Below, piece after piece: positions 13,040 through 24,351 of a DNA stretch of 24,351 nt. The stretch is taken from the UHGV virus genome UHGV-0125333; one strand, written 5' to 3'. The translations under genes and the position numbers were made by a program. How positions within the stretch are numbered: the stretch's first letter is position 1; each line of letters starts with the position of its first letter. The notes below the pieces were generated by a model. That model was not told the DNA's origin, did no database searches, and was given only the letters and a program-made list of their open reading frames with translations. The DNA is from a virus.

Positions 13040-13480
13040 ATGAAAAAACTAACCTTTGAAATTCGATCTCCAGCACATCAGCAAAACGCTATTCACGCAG
13101 TACAGCAAATCCTTCCAGACCCAACCAAACCAATCGTAGTAACCATTCAGGAACGCAACCGCAGCTTAGACCAAAACAGGAAGCTATGGGCCTGCTTAGG
13201 TGACGTCTCTCGTCAGGTTGAATGGCATGGTCGCTGGCTGGATGCAGAAAGCTGGAAGTGTGTGTTTACCGCAGCATTAAAGCAGCAGGATGTTGTTCCT
13301 AACCTTGCCGGGAATGGCTTTGTGGTAATAGGCCAGTCAACCAGCAGGATGCGTGTAGGCGAATTTGCGGAGCTATTAGAGCTTATACAGGCATTCGGTA
13401 CAGAGCGTGGCGTTAAGTGGTCAGACGAAGCGAGACTGGCTCTGGAGTGGAAAGCGAGATGGGGAGATCGGGCTGCATGA
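13040..13480 (+). CDS. ninB: NinB (Orf) recombination mediator
   Basis: From the ATG at 13040: MKKLTFEIRSPAHQQNAIHAVQQILPDPTKPIVVTIQERNRSLDQNRKLWACLGDVSRQ..., 146 aa matching lambda NinB. Confidence 0.9.
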   Translation: MKKLTFEIRSPAHQQNAIHAVQQILPDPTKPIVVTIQERNRSLDQNRKLWACLGDVSRQVEWHGRWLDAESWKCVFTAALKQQDVVPNLAGNGFVVIGQSTSRMRVGEFAELLELIQAFGTERGVKWSDEARLALEWKARWGDRAA

Positions 13481-14004
13481 CTATCAAATCAAATACGCCA
13501 GCACACGACAAGGACTGCTGGCAAACGCCGCTTTGGCTTTTTGATGCACTGGATATTGAGTTTGGATTCTGGCTGGATTCGGCAGCGAGCGACAAAAATG
13601 CTCTGTGTGCTCACTGGCTAACTGAGGCCGACGACGCGCTCAATTCTGAGTGGGTAAGCCACGGTGCAATCTGGAATAACCCACCGTACAGCAATATCAG
13701 GCCGTGGGTGGAAAAAGCTGCTGAGCAGTGCATACAACAGCGACAGACGGTAGTTATGCTTGTGCCAGAGGATATGTCAGTCGGATGGTTCAGCAAGGCT
13801 CTGGAGAGTGTCGACGAAGTTCGCATTATCACTGATGGACGGATTAATTTTATCGAACCATCGACAGGGCTGGAGAAGAAGGGAAACAGCAAAGGCTCCA
13901 TGCTGCTGATTTGGCGACCGTTCATCAGTCCTCGACGGATGTTTACTACCGTATCCAAAGCGGCATTGATGGCGATCGGGCAGGGCGTCAGGAGGGCGGC
14001 ATGA
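13477..14004 (+). CDS. Phage Dam-family N6-adenine DNA methyltransferase
   Basis: ATG overlaps the ninB stop (ATGA). Contains the NPPY catalytic motif ([11 protein letters not shown]) and occupies the ninC/ninD slot between ninB and ninE. Confidence 0.85.
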
Positions 14005-16562: not shown

Positions 16563-17522
16563 ATGATAAAAAAACCTGTGATTGGAATCAGCGGTTGTTT
16601 GGCCGGTTCTGCTGTTCGTTTTGATGGTGGTCACAAAAGAGCTGACTTTTTAATGGACAAATTAGTGGAATGGGTAACATTCAGACCAGTATGTCCGGAA
16701 ATGGCTATAGGGCTGCCAGTTCCGCGTCCTGCTCTACGTCTTGTGCGCTCGATGCAAGGAAATATACGGATGTGTTTCAGCCACGACCAGAATGAGGATG
16801 TGACAGAGAGAATGACAGAGTTTAGTCGTTCTTATATGGACAAATTAAAGGATGTATCGGGGTTTGTGGTTTGTGCTAAATCTCCCAGCTGTGGCATGGA
16901 GCGCGTGCGTGTCTATGATGAAAATGGTAATCGAGGTCGTAAAGATGGAGTGGGACTATTTACGAGCACTTTGATGGAAAAGTTTTCCTGGCTACCGGTT
17001 GAAGAGGATGGGCGATTACATGATCCAGTGCTTCGTGAGAATTTTGTTGAAAGAGTTTTTGCTTTGCATGAGCTCAATCACCTTTACAAGGAGAAATTAT
17101 CAAGAAGAGAGTTATTAGCTTTTCATAGTCGTTATAAGCTTCAGTTGTTGGCGCATAGTCAGGCAGGCTATAAAGATATGGGACCATTTGTGGCTGCAAT
17201 ACACGAGTGGGCGGACCTTGAATCATACTTTGAGGTGTATCGTGATAAGCTGATGGCGATTCTCAGAAAACCTGCATCACGTAAAAATCACACGAATGTG
17301 TTGATGCATATACAGGGGTATTTTAGTAACTACTTAAGTACACGCCAGCGTAAAGAGTTGAGCGAGGTTATACTTAACTATCGTTCTGGCACATTACCTC
17401 TTCTTGCGCCGTTGACTCTGCTGAAGCATTATCTGGGTGAGTATCCTAATGATTACTTGCTTACACAGAATTACTTCGATCCCTATCCGGACGAACTGGC
17501 TCTAAGACTGACGGTAAATTAA
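16563..17522 (+). CDS. DUF523-DUF1722 fusion protein (TudS-like Cys-rich N-terminal domain plus YbgA-like C-terminal domain)
   Basis: 319-aa ORF with strong RBS (AAGGGGGAGAAT). N-terminus MIKKPVIGISGCLAGSAVRFDGGHKR with further conserved Cys (PVCPEM, SPSCGMERV) as in the DUF523 family. Assigned from recall. Confidence 0.75.
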   Translation: MIKKPVIGISGCLAGSAVRFDGGHKRADFLMDKLVEWVTFRPVCPEMAIGLPVPRPALRLVRSMQGNIRMCFSHDQNEDVTERMTEFSRSYMDKLKDVSGFVVCAKSPSCGMERVRVYDENGNRGRKDGVGLFTSTLMEKFSWLPVEEDGRLHDPVLRENFVERVFALHELNHLYKEKLSRRELLAFHSRYKLQLLAHSQAGYKDMGPFVAAIHEWADLESYFEVYRDKLMAILRKPASRKNHTNVLMHIQGYFSNYLSTRQRKELSEVILNYRSGTLPLLAPLTLLKHYLGEYPNDYLLTQNYFDPYPDELALRLTVN

Positions 17523-17873
17523 TTGTATGCGATATCATCCAAAAGGATGAGTTCCTGCATGCAGGATATTTACAATCGTAAAAACTACACTATGATACCC
17601 AGAGTGTCAGTTTGTATAAAAACTCTGTTTACTCTGAAGAAACAATTGAGATGCAACTTAAAGTTGGTAAACATGCCAGTCAAAATATATAATATTATGA
17701 TTCCACGCAGCTATATATAATATAACAGATTGGTTTAATAATTTGTCTTTGTGAGTTAAATACATAATTTTATACTTGTGATGCAATGAAATTTTCCTTA
17801 TTGTTGAACTGGCGAATATTGATTTTCCACCTATACTTACCTGGTGTAACCCCAATGATATCAGGTGGATAAT

Positions 17874-18605
17874 ATGCCATACATATGTTCTATCATTTTG
17901 GTGTTGAACTCGTTTGATGTCCGAATTGGTAAAGAAGATATTTTGTTTAAAAAAGGAAGTGCTGTTCTCATTGATTACAATTTAAAAGATTTTTTTTCAT
18001 CAAATATAGATCATGTAATGATCGTAGATGTTGAAGAGAAAACAGTTAATGATTTCTTTAAAAGCAACACACTCTCACCTTTTTCTGTAAGAAGGTTTTA
18101 TCCGGCATACTTGATGGTGGAATGTGAAGATTTTTCATTGTTAAAGAACTTGATTGCATGCTTGAATTGTGATGGCAGAACTGTGGATTTTGTTAGAAAT
18201 CAAATATCACTTGCATGTCTTGCTATCTTATCTTCAGAGAAAATAGTGCAAAGTTTTTTATTTGGATGTCTTAATAGTTTAGGAAGTAAAGTTAAGGCTA
18301 TTATTCACACGGATATATCTGCAGCATGGAGACTTTGTGATATATCTTCAAGACTGTATCTGAGTGAAAGTCTGTTAAAAAGAAAATTAAAGCACGAAGG
18401 CTTATCATTTAGTAAGTTAATTCTTGAAGAGCGAATGGTGATGGCGGAAAGGTTATTAAGCTACAATTTATATTCTGTTGGAAAAGTTGCTGAGATATGC
18501 GGTTATGAAAACACGTCATATTTTGTAAGTGTTTTCAGAAGGTATTTTGGTGTTCCTCCCCATCAATATTCATCAAGATTTTTTTTAGAAAAAGACATGA
18601 TGTAA
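17874..18605 (+). CDS. AraC/XylS-family transcriptional regulator (AppY/EnvY-like)
   Basis: ATG at 17874 (track ORF starts at GTG 17865). C-terminal AraC-type HTH (VGKVAEICGYENTSYFVSVFRRYFGVPPHQY); N-terminus MPYICSIILVLNSF parallels AppY MDYVCSVVFICQSF. AT-rich gene with a long AT-rich upstream region. Confidence 0.85.
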   Translation: MPYICSIILVLNSFDVRIGKEDILFKKGSAVLIDYNLKDFFSSNIDHVMIVDVEEKTVNDFFKSNTLSPFSVRRFYPAYLMVECEDFSLLKNLIACLNCDGRTVDFVRNQISLACLAILSSEKIVQSFLFGCLNSLGSKVKAIIHTDISAAWRLCDISSRLYLSESLLKRKLKHEGLSFSKLILEERMVMAERLLSYNLYSVGKVAEICGYENTSYFVSVFRRYFGVPPHQYSSRFFLEKDMM

Positions 18606-19966: not shown

Positions 19967-20103
19967 AATCTTAACTACAATATGATTCATTTTGATGATT
20001 GTTTCATAAGGAACAGTGAAGTAAGATCTAAGAGGAGTTAAATTTTATACAGTATAATCATAATATTGCAGCAAGGTGGTTATAATTGAAAGAATATTTA
20101 GAT

Positions 20104-21561
20104 ATGAATACATCTCATGTAAGAGTTGTTACTCATATGTGTGGGTTCCTGGTTTGGCTCTATAGTCTTTCAATGTTGCCACCAATGGTTGTAGCATTGT
20201 TTTATAAAGAAAAAAGCCTGTTCGTTTTCTTTATAACTTTCGTTATATTTTTTTGCATTGGTGGCGGAGCGTGGTATACAACTAAGAAATCTGGCATTCA
20301 ATTACGTACCCGTGATGGGTTTATTATAATTGTAATGTTTTGGATTTTGTTTTCTGTTATTAGTGCATTCCCTTTATGGATTGACTCAGAACTTAATTTA
20401 ACGTTCATTGATGCTCTGTTTGAAGGGGTTTCTGGAATAACAACAACAGGAGCAACTGTAATTGATGATGTTAGTTCATTACCTCGGGCATATTTGTACT
20501 ATCGGTCACAGTTAAATTTTATAGGTGGTTTAGGAGTTATTGTTCTGGCGGTTGCTGTATTGCCATTATTGGGTATTGGTGGTGCAAAGCTTTATCAGTC
20601 AGAAATGCCGGGGCCATTTAAGGATGACAAACTCACTCCCCGCCTGGCCGATACGTCACGGACACTGTGGATAACTTATTCTTTATTAGGTATTGCTTGT
20701 ATTGTCTGTTATAGACTTGCAGGAATGCCTTTGTTTGATGCTATTTGTCACGGGATTTCCACAGTTTCGCTTGGTGGTTTCTCAACTCATAGCGAGAGTA
20801 TCGGATATTTTAATAACTATTTGGTTGAGCTGGTGGCTGGTTCTTTTTCCCTGCTATCGGCTTTCAACTTCACTCTTTGGTATATTGTTATTAGCAGGAA
20901 AACGATAAAACCTTTAATCAGAGATATTGAACTTCGTTTCTTTCTGTTAATAGCCTTAGGGGTGATCATTGTTACCTCTTTCCAGGTCTGGCATATAGGT
21001 ATGTATGACTTGCATGGAAGTTTTATTCATTCGTTTTTTCTTGCCAGCTCCATGCTCACTGATAATGGTTTAGCTACGCAGGATTATGCAAGTTGGCCCA
21101 CGCACACGATAGTGTTTTTGCTGTTGTCAAGTTTCTTTGGGGGATGTATAGGTTCAACTTGTGGTGGAATTAAGTCACTTCGATTTCTTATACTTTTCAA
21201 ACAAAGCAAACACGAGATAAATCAGCTTTCTCATCCCAGAGCGTTGTTGAGTGTAAATGTAGGAGGGAAGATAGTTACAGATCGTGTAATGAGGTCTGTA
21301 TGGAGTTTCTTTTTTCTTTATACTCTCTTCACGGTGTTTTTTATACTGGTGTTAAATGGTATGGGATATGATTTTCTTACATCATTTGCAACAGTGGCTG
21401 CATGTATTAATAATATGGGATTAGGTTTTGGGGCTACTGCATCGTCATTCGGAGTGCTTAATGACATTGCAAAATGTTTAATGTGCATAGCTATGATTCT
21501 TGGTCGCCTTGAAATTTATCCTGTTATTATATTGTTTTCAGGTTTTTTTTGGCGCTCCTAA
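20104..21561 (+). CDS. trkG: TrkG/TrkH-family K+ uptake membrane protein
   Basis: 485 aa from the ATG at 20104 (MNTSHVRVVTHMCGFLVWLYSLSMLPP...), multi-pass membrane protein matching Rac-prophage TrkG as recalled; AT-rich coding sequence. Confidence 0.88.
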   Translation: MNTSHVRVVTHMCGFLVWLYSLSMLPPMVVALFYKEKSLFVFFITFVIFFCIGGGAWYTTKKSGIQLRTRDGFIIIVMFWILFSVISAFPLWIDSELNLTFIDALFEGVSGITTTGATVIDDVSSLPRAYLYYRSQLNFIGGLGVIVLAVAVLPLLGIGGAKLYQSEMPGPFKDDKLTPRLADTSRTLWITYSLLGIACIVCYRLAGMPLFDAICHGISTVSLGGFSTHSESIGYFNNYLVELVAGSFSLLSAFNFTLWYIVISRKTIKPLIRDIELRFFLLIALGVIIVTSFQVWHIGMYDLHGSFIHSFFLASSMLTDNGLATQDYASWPTHTIVFLLLSSFFGGCIGSTCGGIKSLRFLILFKQSKHEINQLSHPRALLSVNVGGKIVTDRVMRSVWSFFFLYTLFTVFFILVLNGMGYDFLTSFATVAACINNMGLGFGATASSFGVLNDIAKCLMCIAMILGRLEIYPVIILFSGFFWRS

Positions 21562-21647: not shown

Positions 21648-21680
21648 CCCCAGTAGCACTGGCTGCTGGGGTGCGTTTTA
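21648..21680 (+). terminator. Candidate terminator downstream of trkG
   Basis: Imperfect hairpin CCCCAGTAGCAC/TGGCTGCTGGGG followed by TGCGTTTTATT. Confidence 0.35.
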
Positions 21681-21698: not shown

Positions 21699-22490
21699 AT
21701 GAGCGAGAAATTAAAGATAGTCTATCGCCCATTACAAGAATTGTCACCGTATGCGCACAACGCCAGGACGCACAGCCCTGAGCAGGTGGCACAACTGGTA
21801 GAAAGTATTAAGCAATTCGGCTGGACTAATCCGGTGCTGATTGACGAAAAGGGCGAAATTATTGCGGGTCACGGTCGTGTTATGGCGGCTGAAATGCTCA
21901 AAATGGATTCTGTTCCGGTCATTGTTCTGTCTGGCCTGACGGATGAGCAGAAAAAGGCGTACCGCCTGGCAGATAATCGCCTGCCGATGAATGCTGGCTG
22001 GGATGAAGATCTGTTGCGGATGGAGCTGTCGGACCTAATCAATGCTGATTTTGATGTCTCCCTGACAGGCTTCATCCCGACAGAAATTGATGAACTGTTG
22101 ACGGATGTTTTGCCCGGTACAGGAAATGAGGAGGAGCCGTATACGACGAAAATTGATACGCCTGTTTATGAGCCGTCGGGCGGTAAACCGGATATCAGTG
22201 AACTGTACGACGATACGAAAACTCAGGAGCTGATCAGCCGGATACGTTCGGCGTCCCTTGAGCCTGATATTGAGAAATTCCTCCTGTGTGCGGCAGAACG
22301 TCACACGGTGTTTAATTTCAGCAGAATTGCGGACTATTACGCTCACGCCCCCTCTGAAATTCAGTGTTTTTTCGAGGAGTCGGCGCTGGTGATCATTGAT
22401 TATCAGCAGGCTATTGAAAATGGATTTGTCCGGATGACGCAGCGCATGGTGGAGATCATGCATGGTGGTGAGGAGGAGGAATATGCGTGA
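21699..22490 (+). CDS. ParB N-terminal-domain (ParB/Srx-fold nuclease-like) protein
   Basis: 263-aa ORF with a ParB-box-like region (VLIDEKGEIIAGHGRVMAAEMLKMDSVPVIVL) and an acidic C-terminal tail. It sits where ynaK lies in Rac, downstream of trkG. Confidence 0.8.
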   Translation: MSEKLKIVYRPLQELSPYAHNARTHSPEQVAQLVESIKQFGWTNPVLIDEKGEIIAGHGRVMAAEMLKMDSVPVIVLSGLTDEQKKAYRLADNRLPMNAGWDEDLLRMELSDLINADFDVSLTGFIPTEIDELLTDVLPGTGNEEEPYTTKIDTPVYEPSGGKPDISELYDDTKTQELISRIRSASLEPDIEKFLLCAAERHTVFNFSRIADYYAHAPSEIQCFFEESALVIIDYQQAIENGFVRMTQRMVEIMHGGEEEEYA

Positions 22491-23415
22491 TGATTTTTGC
22501 GCCTTTATTCTGACTCACGGGCGACCGGACAAAGTTCTGACTTACCGGACGTTGCGTCGTGCTGGCTATACCGGGAAAATTTTTATCGTTGTTGATGATG
22601 AAGATAAGACACGGAATCAGTACATGGCTGAATTTGGTGAACAGGTGCTGGTGTTTTCCAAAGCCGATATCGCCAGTCGTTTTGACGAAGCCGATAATTT
22701 CTGTGACCGCCGCTCAATTTTTTACGCCCGTAATGCCTGTTTCGACCTGGCAAAACTGGTCGGGTGTAAATACTTCATTCAGCTCGATGATGATTATCAC
22801 GAGTTCCAGTTTCGGGTGGATCGCAACTATGACCAGGCCTATTTTCCGATAAGGAAACTGGATGCGATCCTTTCTGAAATGCTGGCGTACTACGAATCAA
22901 TACCTGCTCTTTCCATCGCTATGTCGCAGGGCGGGGATTTTCTTGGTGACAATGGCGGCCATGCTTCGTGGGTGAAACGCAAGGCAATGAACAGCTTTAT
23001 CTGTTCGGTTGATCGACCGTTCTCATTCATGGGGCGCATTAACGAGGATGTGAATACGTACACGAATCTCGGTCGCTGTGGTGAATTGTTTATGACGATC
23101 GGTGCTGTCCAGTTAGGGCAGAAACAGACGCAGAAAAACAGCGGCGGAATGACCGAGCTGTATCTGGATTCCGGAACCTACGTTAAAAGTTTTTACTCCG
23201 TCATGTATGCGCCGTCGTGCGTAAAAATCTCACTGATGGGTGCCAGCCATAAACGCATTCACCATCAGGTCACCTGGAACAACGCTGCAGTAAAAATCCT
23301 TCACGAAAAATACAGGAAGAAGACACCCTGCATATCAATGGGGGTGACAAATGATTCCGTATTCGAAAGTCGAGTCTCTGGCAGCGTGCCGGATGACTGC
23401 ACAACAAATCGCTGA
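22483..23415 (+). CDS. GT-A-fold glycosyltransferase-like protein (GT2-like signature), translationally coupled to the ParB-like gene
   Basis: ATG at 22483 overlaps the upstream stop by 8 nt. N-terminal FILTHGRPD ... IFIVVDDEDKT and the later ARNACFDLAKLVGCKYFIQLDDDYHEF block resemble the two nucleotide-sugar-binding motifs of GT-A enzymes. It sits where ydaY lies in Rac. Confidence 0.65.
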   Translation: MRDDFCAFILTHGRPDKVLTYRTLRRAGYTGKIFIVVDDEDKTRNQYMAEFGEQVLVFSKADIASRFDEADNFCDRRSIFYARNACFDLAKLVGCKYFIQLDDDYHEFQFRVDRNYDQAYFPIRKLDAILSEMLAYYESIPALSIAMSQGGDFLGDNGGHASWVKRKAMNSFICSVDRPFSFMGRINEDVNTYTNLGRCGELFMTIGAVQLGQKQTQKNSGGMTELYLDSGTYVKSFYSVMYAPSCVKISLMGASHKRIHHQVTWNNAAVKILHEKYRKKTPCISMGVTNDSVFESRVSGSVPDDCTTNR

Positions 23416-23602
23416 CGTTCTGGATGTTGATCTGAACCGACTGAAAGAAAATCGGGAAGCAATGACAGATTTTTATGCGGCCATCCGTAAGGGCAGAGCG
23501 AAAGGTGAAGCCGAGTTACGAGCGGCATTGTTTAAGCTTGCCAGAAAAGGGGATGCCTTTGCTCTGCGCGAACTACTCAGGGTGGATAAAAATCAGGACT
23601 AA
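23351..23602 (+). CDS. Small helical, possibly DNA-binding protein preceding the terminase small subunit
   Basis: 83-aa ORF overlapping the 3' end of the upstream gene by 65 nt (23 nt if the ATG at 23393 is used); ends 3 nt before the terminase small-subunit ATG. Validity and start are uncertain. Confidence 0.4.
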   Translation: MIPYSKVESLAACRMTAQQIADVLDVDLNRLKENREAMTDFYAAIRKGRAKGEAELRAALFKLARKGDAFALRELLRVDKNQD

Positions 23603-23605
23603 CTG

Positions 23606-24301
23606 ATGAGCAGACCGGACTGGGGGGCGTTGCAGCAGGAGTATATTGCTGAATACACCCGCTCCGGTATATCTCCGGTGGCATGGTGTGAAGCAAGGGG
23701 ACTGAATTACGCAACAGCCCGTCGTTACATCAAAAAAACTCCGAAAAATGCGCAGACAGAAATGTGCAAAACTGCGCAAAAAAGTGCGCAGAAAAAATCT
23801 GCGCAGACTGCACAAAAGCGGAACGAAAAATCTCAGGAAAAAAAGCCAGTATTCGATGCGGGCCTGAATGAGGGCGACGCGGAGGAATTTTCGTTCTGTC
23901 CCGATGAATTCGGCATTTCTGACCAGCAGGCTAAGTTTGCGATGCTTGTTGCTCAGGGTAAAAAGCCGACAGAGGCGTACCGACTAGCCGGTTATGAGGG
24001 GCAAGGTGCGACAGCTAACAGCAACGCCAGTCGTATGCTTAGAAATGCCAGGGTTTTTCGCGCTATCAGCTACTTCCGCAATCAGTACCAGAAACGCTAT
24101 ACCGCAGACCTGGATTTACTAGTGAGTCAGTTGATGGCTATTGCCCTGGCCGACCCCAATCAGCTTGCACAATTTCGCCGTGTTAACTGCCGTTATTGCT
24201 GGGGCGAGAATCATCTCTACCAGTGGCGCGATATAGCAGAATTCGACAAGGCAGCGGCGCAGGCTTCCAGAGATGGCAAACCCGAACCGGAATATGGATG
24301 A
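23606..24301 (+). CDS. Terminase small subunit (Terminase_2-like)
   Basis: 231-aa ORF; the segment QQAKFAMLVAQGKKPTEAYRLAGYEG ... NASRMLRNARVFRAISYF resembles small-terminase DNA-binding domains. It is the first gene of the packaging module. Confidence 0.7.
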   Translation: MSRPDWGALQQEYIAEYTRSGISPVAWCEARGLNYATARRYIKKTPKNAQTEMCKTAQKSAQKKSAQTAQKRNEKSQEKKPVFDAGLNEGDAEEFSFCPDEFGISDQQAKFAMLVAQGKKPTEAYRLAGYEGQGATANSNASRMLRNARVFRAISYFRNQYQKRYTADLDLLVSQLMAIALADPNQLAQFRRVNCRYCWGENHLYQWRDIAEFDKAAAQASRDGKPEPEYG

Positions 24302-24351
24302 TCCTACCCACGTAATATGGACACAGGCCTAAGCGAGGTTCTTGTTTTCAA

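Follow-up and report, generated by a model that had tools for sequence, protein, structure and literature searches.

A translationally coupled ParB-like and TAGT glycosyltransferase gene pair ahead of the terminase of a Rac-like prophage: a candidate two-subunit DNA glycosyltransferase

The virus genome UHGV-0125333 (24,351 nt; "the window" is this whole stretch of DNA) is a lambdoid (Rac-like) E. coli prophage. At 21699-23415 it carries two overlapping genes, here called gene A, which encodes a ParB-like protein, and gene B, which encodes a glycosyltransferase (GT) of the TET/JBP-associated glycosyltransferase (TAGT) family. With a probability of roughly 0.5 we favour the reading that the two products form a late-expressed, ParB-assisted two-subunit DNA glycosyltransferase, which would mark phage DNA before or during packaging. 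This model is favoured because of the family of gene B, the DNA-enzyme pedigree of the N-terminal domain of gene A, the variants of the module found in replication clusters and the position just before the terminase.

Directly observed are the fold of each protein, the intact residues for catalysis and, presumably, for NTP binding, the conservation of the overlap, the pre-terminase position and the domain dissection of the partner. An earlier note, made from the sequence of the window, had described two intact genes overlapping by 8 nt between trkG and the terminase small subunit. Both open reading frames (ORFs) are indeed intact, and the pair is placed between trkG (20086..21561) on one side and a small ORF and the Terminase_2 gene (23351.., 23606..) on the other. 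The features of the pair are as follows.

21699..22490, + strand: gene A (ynaK-type), 263 aa, intact ORF
21699..22106, + strand: ParB/Srx nucleotide-binding domain (NBD) of gene A, aa 1-136, with conserved N21-x-R23, G57-H58-x-R60 and D92-N93
22137..22178, + strand: linear motif P-Y-T-x-K-I-x-x-P-x-Y-E-P-S of gene A, aa 147-160, within a predicted disordered linker
22191..22463, + strand: GT-associated C-terminal helical domain (CTD) of gene A, aa 165-255, with R201, Y214 and D234 invariant
22470..22490, + strand: translational coupling site, with the Shine-Dalgarno run GAGGAGGAGG at 22470-22479 (contains GGAGG), ATG at 22483 and TGA at 22488-22490
22483..23415, + strand: gene B, 310 aa, intact ORF, ATG at 22483
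22786..22797, + strand: DxD metal and nucleotide-sugar motif D102-D103-D104-Y105 of gene B, GAT GAT GAT TAT, in 91/91 distant homologues
21648..21680, + strand: terminator-like hairpin (21648-21671) and T-run, CCCCAGTAGCACTGGCTGCTGGGG TGCGTTTTAT, 10-bp stem with 7 G-C

The glycosyltransferase and its coupled partner

Gene B matches Pfam PF20691 (TAGT) with 121.1 bits against a cut-off of 27.5 (E=7.6e-35), over aa 8-222 and profile positions 4-205 of 205. It also belongs to phrog_842, labelled T2/T6 beta-glucosyl-HMC-alpha-glucosyltransferase (E=1.1e-103, aa 1-298), and PF20691 is carried by 120/120 gene B homologues among the matches listed. The fold is GT-A (nucleotide-diphospho-sugar transferase) with a DxD motif. 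A soluble GT-A enzyme with this motif had been proposed in the earlier note and is upheld here; the label 'GT2-like' given with it is not, as Pfam returns TAGT alone. Neither gene had been counted there in the canonical lambdoid packaging or lysis set. The family of gene B is a named one: TAGT, PHROG 842 and, in the recent PGAP name for an identical protein, 'GREB1-related protein'. Among the TAGT enzymes is the one with which T2/T6 attach a second glucose to alpha-glucosyl-hydroxymethylcytosine (alpha-glucosyl-hmC) in DNA (PMC13390438, PMC13216743); relatives of the family are the base-J glucosyltransferase and the GT domain found in animal GREB1 (PMC7968844).

Conservation in gene B was counted over 91 homologues less than 60% identical. 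Both blocks that the earlier note had picked out, ARN...DDD and VVDDED, turn out to be strongly conserved: R83 and N84 are each present in 91/91 and A82 in 90/91, and in the VVDDED block D41 is kept in 90/90 and D38 in 88/90. Invariant or nearly so are R14, D41, R83-N84, D102-D103-D104-Y105, G151-D152, R166, N170, N187, D189, G222, R258 and H260-H261. The conserved core covers aa 1-283, and the final ~27 aa are peculiar to the E. coli version. No transmembrane segment, signal sequence or hydrophobic segment was found in gene B (maximum KD19 1.08), and a PDB sequence search with the GT profile gave chance-level matches alone (E ~0.8). The residue pattern marks gene B as a soluble glycosyltransferase of the DxD type that is active and subject to strong purifying selection.

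The overlap of the two genes consists of the 8 nt ATGCGTGA at 22483-22490, with the ATG of gene B inside it. A second candidate ATG is found at 22462; the start was set at 22483 because homologues start at MRDDF. Among 131 non-identical loci, 68 share the 8-nt overlap, 46 have one of 11 nt and 6 one of 4 nt, and the GT start lies 4-11 nt before the end of the partner gene in ~120/131. Since these lengths recur across the loci, the 8-nt overlap is not due to chance. The hairpin at 21648..21680 closes the trkG moron and lies 19 nt upstream of the gene A start codon, and no promoter-like site was found between it and 21699. With a hairpin upstream and no promoter-like site after it, the pair would be read by antiterminated late transcription, that is, it is probably transcribed only with the late operon by antiterminated polymerase.

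For gene A, the expectation of a ParB/Srx-fold N-terminal domain was confirmed by a Pfam ParB_N score over its cut-off, by a PDB match to Noc/Spo0J (E=3e-5) and by the AlphaFold2 (AF2) model. The same domain matches phrog_498 (E=1.2e-50, aa 3-141), and gene A matches the PADLOC model MTase_II (E=2.2e-38) by its N-terminal ParB-like part alone; both matches fit a survey of ParB domains heading phage DNA methyltransferases (PMC12704722). The candidate function of a partition ParB was rejected: TIGR00180 gives 38.5 bits, below its cut-off of 58.45, and covers aa 11-94 alone. Pfam finds no helix-turn-helix (HTH) or ParB dimerisation domain in gene A, and no parA gene is annotated near the pair in L001, an intact Rac-like prophage locus, or in locus L167.

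By motif spacing, R23, R60 and N93 of gene A correspond to the phosphate-binding residues R54, R95 and N127 of Myxococcus ParB. Distant homologues keep R23 in 56/69, R60 in 65/74, N93 in 77/78 and G57 in 74/74, and the Myxococcus ParB hydrolysis residues Q52 and E93 are replaced in the gene A family by N21 and H/N58. This pattern suggests that nucleotide binding is kept and hydrolysis altered.

The remainder of gene A was compared over 93 proteins less than 55% identical to the window protein. In the linker motif Y148, P155 and Y157 are each conserved in 99% and K151 in 84%; in the CTD the figures are 100% for R201, Y214 and D234, 99% for E226 and 91% for H202. The AF2 model has the NBD at 1-135 (pLDDT 70-90), a stretch with pLDDT <50 at 137-169 and a helical CTD at 170-255, which gives a predicted architecture of NBD, unstructured linker and CTD without a DNA-binding domain.

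The C-terminal half of gene A is better conserved than the ParB domain. Vibrio phage pv27 and loci L113, L117, L134 and L151 have the CTD without a ParB domain, as a protein of 130-140 aa directly before the GT. The CTD family comprises 1189 clusters at 50% identity in a library of 1.84 billion proteins, and in the 150 best-scoring of the 1189 clusters the CTD is either C-terminal in proteins of ~250-300 aa or standalone. Because the CTD is the better conserved part and is found before the GT without a ParB domain, we conclude from these comparisons that the linker motif and the CTD probably make up the GT-specific subunit, with the ParB domain as a frequent, separable accessory. A different N-terminal domain in Bacteroidota partners lacking a ParB match with the hidden Markov model (HMM) was considered and, for most of them, dropped; these mostly give weak Pfam ParB_N hits, and 4/10 were left unassigned.

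Distribution and genomic position

Homologue sets of at least 8000 for each of the two families were collected, and 80 loci from IMG/VR together with 80 from GTDB species genomes were compared. The GTDB loci span Enterobacteria, Bacteroidota, Clostridia, Veillonella, Acidobacteriota, Verrucomicrobiota, Kiritimatiellae, Ignavibacteria, Saccharibacteria and alpha-proteobacteria; the pair itself is found in Proteobacteria, Bacteroidota, Firmicutes, Actinobacteria and one archaeal virus. In the fetched loci the GT is still 46-60% identical to the window protein. Among complete E. coli genomes, 889/5426 (~16%, about one in six) hold at least 80% of the pair.

Partners were detected with HMMs on the two halves of gene A at loci with enough upstream sequence (n=150). 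The neighbourhood survey proposed in the earlier note, for co-occurrence and conserved overlap, gave a positive answer on both counts: the C-terminal half of gene A lies in an ORF running into the GT start at 146/150 loci, with the 8-nt overlap as the commonest length given above (68/131). A ParB domain is detectable in 130 of those 146 partner ORFs.

Among isolated viruses, the pair occurs in Lactobacillus delbrueckii phages c5, LL-Ku, phiLdb and Ld17, in L. gasseri phage phi jlb1, in Nocardia phage NTR1 and, at 27% identity with the gene order retained, in Porphyromonas phages. In phage c5 it forms the first two genes after cos. Genes 21-22 of Halovirus HHTV-2 (L168 5196-6858) encode a ParB-like protein and a TAGT enzyme, the GT being 43% identical to the E. 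coli protein and the overlap 11 nt, ~3 kb upstream of the large terminase. As HHTV-2 is haloarchaeal, the cassette crosses the boundary between bacteria and archaea. The terminase genes found downstream of the pair differ between loci.

Terminase_2: this window
Terminase_4 and TerL: L002
TerL: L004
GpA: L006 and L137
Terminase_6 and T7-type: other loci

The pair thus stands directly upstream of at least four unrelated terminase types, and by TerL profiles a terminase lies within 5 kb downstream in 96/137 loci. A class of 41/137 loci with 'no terminase' was discarded as an artefact of the TerL profiles: Pfam, applied to 10 of them, gave 7 with other terminase families, 2 with no hit and 1 with a clamp.

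In pv27, L117 and L113 the module is placed in replication clusters. In pv27 the C-domain protein and the GT lie between primase/exonuclease and helicase, with a clamp, single-strand binding protein (SSB), exonuclease and primase upstream, helicases and a DNA methyltransferase downstream, and a topoisomerase near. The other two (L117 28-8962, L113 2-6196) are Lachnospiraceae and Bacteroidaceae loci from metagenome-assembled genomes, with a Caps_synth/DXD-type GT, a second TAGT and an NTP-transferase nearby. The order in L117 is primase, second DXD GT, NTP-transferase, DNA polymerase A, C-domain, TAGT and DnaN-like clamp, and that in L113 is polymerase A, second TAGT, C-domain, TAGT and a 360-aa ORF in the position of the L117 clamp. 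By gene content these two loci look like a multi-sugar DNA modification cluster.

The upstream side was surveyed with 149 neighbour ORFs from 66 diverse loci, using 7 kb upstream at loci L087-L166. DNA methylases are the commonest Pfam families among these neighbours (N6_N4_Mtase 5, C5 methylase 3), and the region ahead of the terminase looks like a hotspot where DNA-modification and accessory genes in general collect. Recurrent upstream of the pair are also PAPS_reduct (3 loci), Prok-E2_D with ThiF (2 loci each) and Lin1244_N (3 loci).

Function of the pair

The mechanism we propose is as follows. Gene B would be a metal- and nucleotide-sugar-dependent TAGT enzyme that places a sugar onto DNA, as the characterised TAGT members of phages and kinetoplastids do on DNA bases, and gene A its obligate co-translated partner. 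The linker motif and helical CTD of gene A would bind or activate the GT, and its ParB/Srx NBD would couple the enzyme to duplex phage DNA. The A-B complex would then glycosylate phage DNA that has been replicated, immediately ahead of packaging or in the course of it, and the glycosylated DNA would enter the next host shielded from nucleases. We infer the physical complex, DNA as the substrate, the timing and the protective role. Counted in support of the model is the charge of the two proteins, with a basic GT (pI 8.0 in the window, median 8.7 over the genome loci) against an acidic partner (pI 4.5).

The closest characterised analogue of the pair is found in the thymine dioxygenases of phages, which require a ParB-like activator, consisting of NBD, unstructured linker and CTD with no HTH, on dsDNA alone (PMC13229309). 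In the system 5mYOX176/ParB176 (O'Toole et al., PNAS 2026) neither the NBD nor the CTD can be dispensed with, and dioxygenase contigs co-occur with GTs in 31%, ParBs in 27% and terminases in 19% (PMC13229309). In both cases an enzyme gene stands beside a gene for an NBD-linker-CTD partner without HTH (for gene A according to AF2), the likeness to ParB176 being one of architecture. Unlike 5mYOX176/ParB176, the pair has a TAGT GT-A glycosyltransferase as its enzyme and not an Fe/2OG dioxygenase, no dioxygenase being present, and in gene A the CTD and motif are conserved much more strongly than the NBD and can accompany the enzyme on their own. The near-universal coupling of the two genes suggests that the GT may likewise depend on its ParB-like partner.

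With the T2/T6 beta-glucosyl-HMC-alpha-glucosyltransferase gene B shares its Pfam and PHROG family, the GT-A fold, the DxD motif and a phage origin. The T-even enzymes, unlike gene B, act alone, on alpha-glucosyl-hmC DNA that is made by dCMP hydroxymethylase and alpha-GT, and neither of these two was found in the window or L001. A tblastn search with gene B gave no T2/T6 match at E<=1e-3; the nearest T4-like relative is in Aeromonas phage 65 (~23% identical), with no annotated ParB-like gene within 2.5 kb of its GT. Nearly the same ParB/Srx domain as in gene A is joined to a DNA-modifying enzyme in the phage ParB-methyltransferase fusions (phrog_498, MTase_II and N6_N4_Mtase fusions, PMC12704722). 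Unlike in those fusions, the ParB domain of gene A is joined to an adaptor domain of its own, and the enzyme, a polypeptide encoded apart and coupled in translation, would use a nucleotide sugar, not SAM. ParB-fused phage DNA methyltransferases are prophage-enriched and are also often encoded near packaging genes.

A further parallel is DpdB, a ParB/DndB-like ATPase that is needed together with DpdA for insertion of 7-deazaguanine into DNA. It resembles the pair in having a ParB-superfamily NTPase as accessory to a base-modifying enzyme, and differs in that the enzyme is a tRNA-guanine-transglycosylase-like base exchanger, with other domains, in a bacterial restriction-modification-like island. 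The link between ParB and DNA modification was proposed earlier by Iyer et al. 2013, as that work is cited in PMC8256090 and PMC13229309.

Several points weigh against DNA glycosylation by the pair, above all the acceptor. The TAGT reactions known so far depend on the hydroxyl of a modified base, namely hmC, hydroxymethyluracil (hmU) or glucosyl-hmC. TET/JBP, a thymidylate-synthase-like hydroxymethylase or another source of hydroxymethyl bases is absent from the window, from annotated L001 and from the 31.8-kb c5 genome; likewise no TET/JBP or hydroxymethyl-pyrimidine source was found in the 8-kb flanks of L002-L006. Neither TET_JBP nor a hydroxymethylase is among the 25 commonest of the 57 families in the 149 upstream neighbours, a result compatible with rare occurrence. 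With no TET/JBP or hydroxymethylase nearby, the usual acceptor base is missing. DNA modification of Rac-like or lambdoid phages was not reported in the literature searched. Moreover, gene A is very acidic and has no recognisable DNA-binding domain: its net charge is -25, every domain is acidic, the tail is poly-Glu, and its homologues are uniformly acidic as well (pI 4.25-4.61, n=35). Such acidity is odd for a DNA-acting protein and might reflect DNA mimicry or a charge-based regulation of the basic GT. In both AF2 models confidence is low over the C-terminal half because the alignments were shallow (31 and 35 sequences, >=54% identity). Finally, animal GREB1 uses its TAGT-related domain to glycosylate a protein (PMC7968844).

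The missing acceptor may reflect a precursor pathway that goes undetected elsewhere in the cassette-carrying genomes. A bolder form of the DNA model, which we regard as doubtful, is that the cassette places a hitherto undescribed sugar modification on otherwise canonical DNA, at a normal base, an exocyclic amine or the backbone, without any hydroxymethyl-pyrimidine precursor. In this form too the enzyme would have two subunits, with the ParB-like partner loading or activating it on the duplex.

A rival reading is that the pair acts in protein O-glycosylation late in infection. The target could be the partner itself at Y148/T149/Y157, in a glycogenin-like manner, or a virion, packaging or host protein, and the ParB-like protein would then be substrate or adaptor and not a DNA-targeting factor. 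The GT domain of GREB1, an animal O-GlcNAc transferase, is homologous to gene B; unlike gene B it is part of a 1949-aa eukaryotic multidomain protein, with ER-alpha as substrate and no ParB-like partner (PMC7968844). On balance we hold protein glycosylation to be rather unlikely. Roles as packaging accessory, in lysogen defence or in envelope glycan modification are less likely. As a packaging accessory, the ParB-like protein would be a nuclease or site-binding factor that aids the terminase at cos/pac, like the HNH proteins of HK97-like phages, with the GT-like protein in a structural or regulatory part in packaging and not a modifying one. Across phyla no catalytic-type residue of the GT varies, which argues for catalysis and against this role; with at least four unrelated terminase families alongside, the cassette is not co-adapted to any one of them; C-domain and GT are also found away from terminases, in the replication clusters; and most tailed phages package without the cassette. 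We therefore consider a packaging accessory improbable.

Defence or superinfection exclusion in the lysogen, for example by over-glycosylation of incoming hmC- or hmU-containing genomes, has in its favour that TAGT enzymes use hmC-/hmU-derived bases, which E. coli meets only in invading phages, an idea raised in bioRxiv 10.1101/2023.12.21.572611, and that the neighbour trkG is a lysogen-expressed moron. The pair itself has the late-operon position and the hairpin directly upstream with no promoter-like site after it, it occurs in Lactobacillus phage c5 and in ~191-kb Vibrio phages with no integrase annotated in the parts examined, and the GT has no match in PADLOC-DB 2.0. Of the roles listed in the earlier note, lysogen defence thus becomes very unlikely, and packaging-linked glycosylation of phage DNA is the one we favour, at the odds given at the outset. 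A seroconversion-type GT moron that modifies a cell-envelope glycan is hardly credible. Neither a transmembrane segment nor a signal sequence is present in the GT, there are no partner genes of the flippase or GtrA type, and the enzyme is 46-60% identical across Gram-negative, Gram-positive and other phyla, and at ~43% in the haloarchaeal virus, despite their unrelated envelopes.

Annotation, neighbouring genes and significance

In E. coli K-12 the match to gene A is restricted to nt 1-254. The K-12 gene ydaY is the counterpart of a gene lying between the tail tube and tape-measure genes in intact Rac-like prophages (L001 31807-32166). The deletion in K-12 Rac runs from ynaK nt 254 to the ydaY tail region and removes GT, terminase and head genes, so that the first 254 nt of gene A are fused to ydaY. 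As the match ends at nt 254 and ydaY is a tail-region gene, K-12 has no GT counterpart, pseudogene or otherwise, and the pseudogene counterpart of gene B that the earlier note had named for K-12 Rac does not exist.

In RefSeq/PGAP the 263-aa gene A, itself intact, goes under the label of a partial ynaK pseudogene ('missing C-terminus'; L001 20001-20792, L167 20001-20258), and some genomes have an extra 'transcriptional regulator' CDS for the C-terminal half of gene A. The ORF is uninterrupted in L001 and L167, and the likely cause of the pseudogene call is the use of truncated K-12 ynaK as the reference. The PHROG-derived name 'beta-glucosyl-HMC-alpha-glucosyltransferase' has spread to NC_019449, NC_021340, OR413349, PP754928 and others, including the archaeal virus. 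No hmC pathway was found in so-named phages, in the whole c5 genome or within 11-36 kb around the gene in the others; on these phages it probably misleads, and this product name should not be transferred.

The window encodes a lambda-type integrase, RecT, an S24 repressor, O and P replication proteins, phage Dam methylase, lysis genes and the trkG moron. Downstream of the pair are the following.

23351..23602, + strand: small ORF, 83 aa, overlapping the 3' end of gene B; phrog_309, E=8.3e-23
23606..24298, + strand: terminase small subunit gene (Terminase_2 / phrog_51), interrupted after codon 231 by an IS3 end at 24299

The small ORF is akin to part of a small terminase subunit; PGAP places its start at 23393 (69 aa), and it is 'hypothetical' in the annotation of L001 and L167. 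The intact terminase small subunit in L001 has 364 aa, and the prophage copy in the window is probably packaging-defective. From 24299 to 24351 (TGATCCTACCCACGTAATATGG...) the sequence is the end of an IS3 element; 'IS3 family transposase' matches occur in 3582/5426 E. coli genomes. Short direct repeats (AAAAA-N-TGCGCAGA), in 3-4 copies ~15-36 nt apart, lie at 23731-23807 in the 5' part of the small-terminase gene, where they code for a repetitive KKSAQ/TAQK stretch. They could be a pac or TerS-binding element, or a mere low-complexity coding region. Repeats flanking the pair, as a sign of mobility or a parS-like site, were looked for and gave just short, low-identity, chance-level matches, and an inverted copy of the upstream hairpin near 23620 was dropped as it was not recovered in the repeat search. 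Elsewhere in the window are a dATP/dGTP pyrophosphohydrolase with DUF551 (2008-2805, -), the phage Dam N6-adenine methyltransferase (13417-14004, +), a 2-thiouracil desulfurase with DUF1722 (16563-17522, +) and an AraC-type regulator (17865-18605, +).

The fold, the family and the proposed link between ParB and modification are already known. The literature searched contains no functional study of the pair, and does not describe the TET-less ParB-TAGT cassette, its dissection into two subunits, its breadth including an archaeal virus or the missing acceptor. Sugar modification of phage DNA is so far known where hydroxymethyl-pyrimidines are made first, in T-even phages and in TET/5mYOX clusters. 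The cassette has the same enzyme family, yet the phages that carry it are small and temperate and have an ordinary DNA metabolism. Annotation at present mislabels the pair as 'partition protein', 'transcriptional regulator', 'beta-glucosyl-HMC-alpha-glucosyltransferase' or pseudogene, and the proposed function, if true, would explain it. It would also extend the concept of ParB as activator of DNA-modifying enzymes from dioxygenases to glycosyltransferases. If DNA is what is modified, new acceptor chemistry would be expected, and if the acceptor is canonical DNA, an unnoticed DNA glycosylation would exist in many temperate phages, among them Rac-like prophages, Lactobacillus phages of dairy origin, prophages of gut Bacteroidota and Clostridia, and a virus of haloarchaea.

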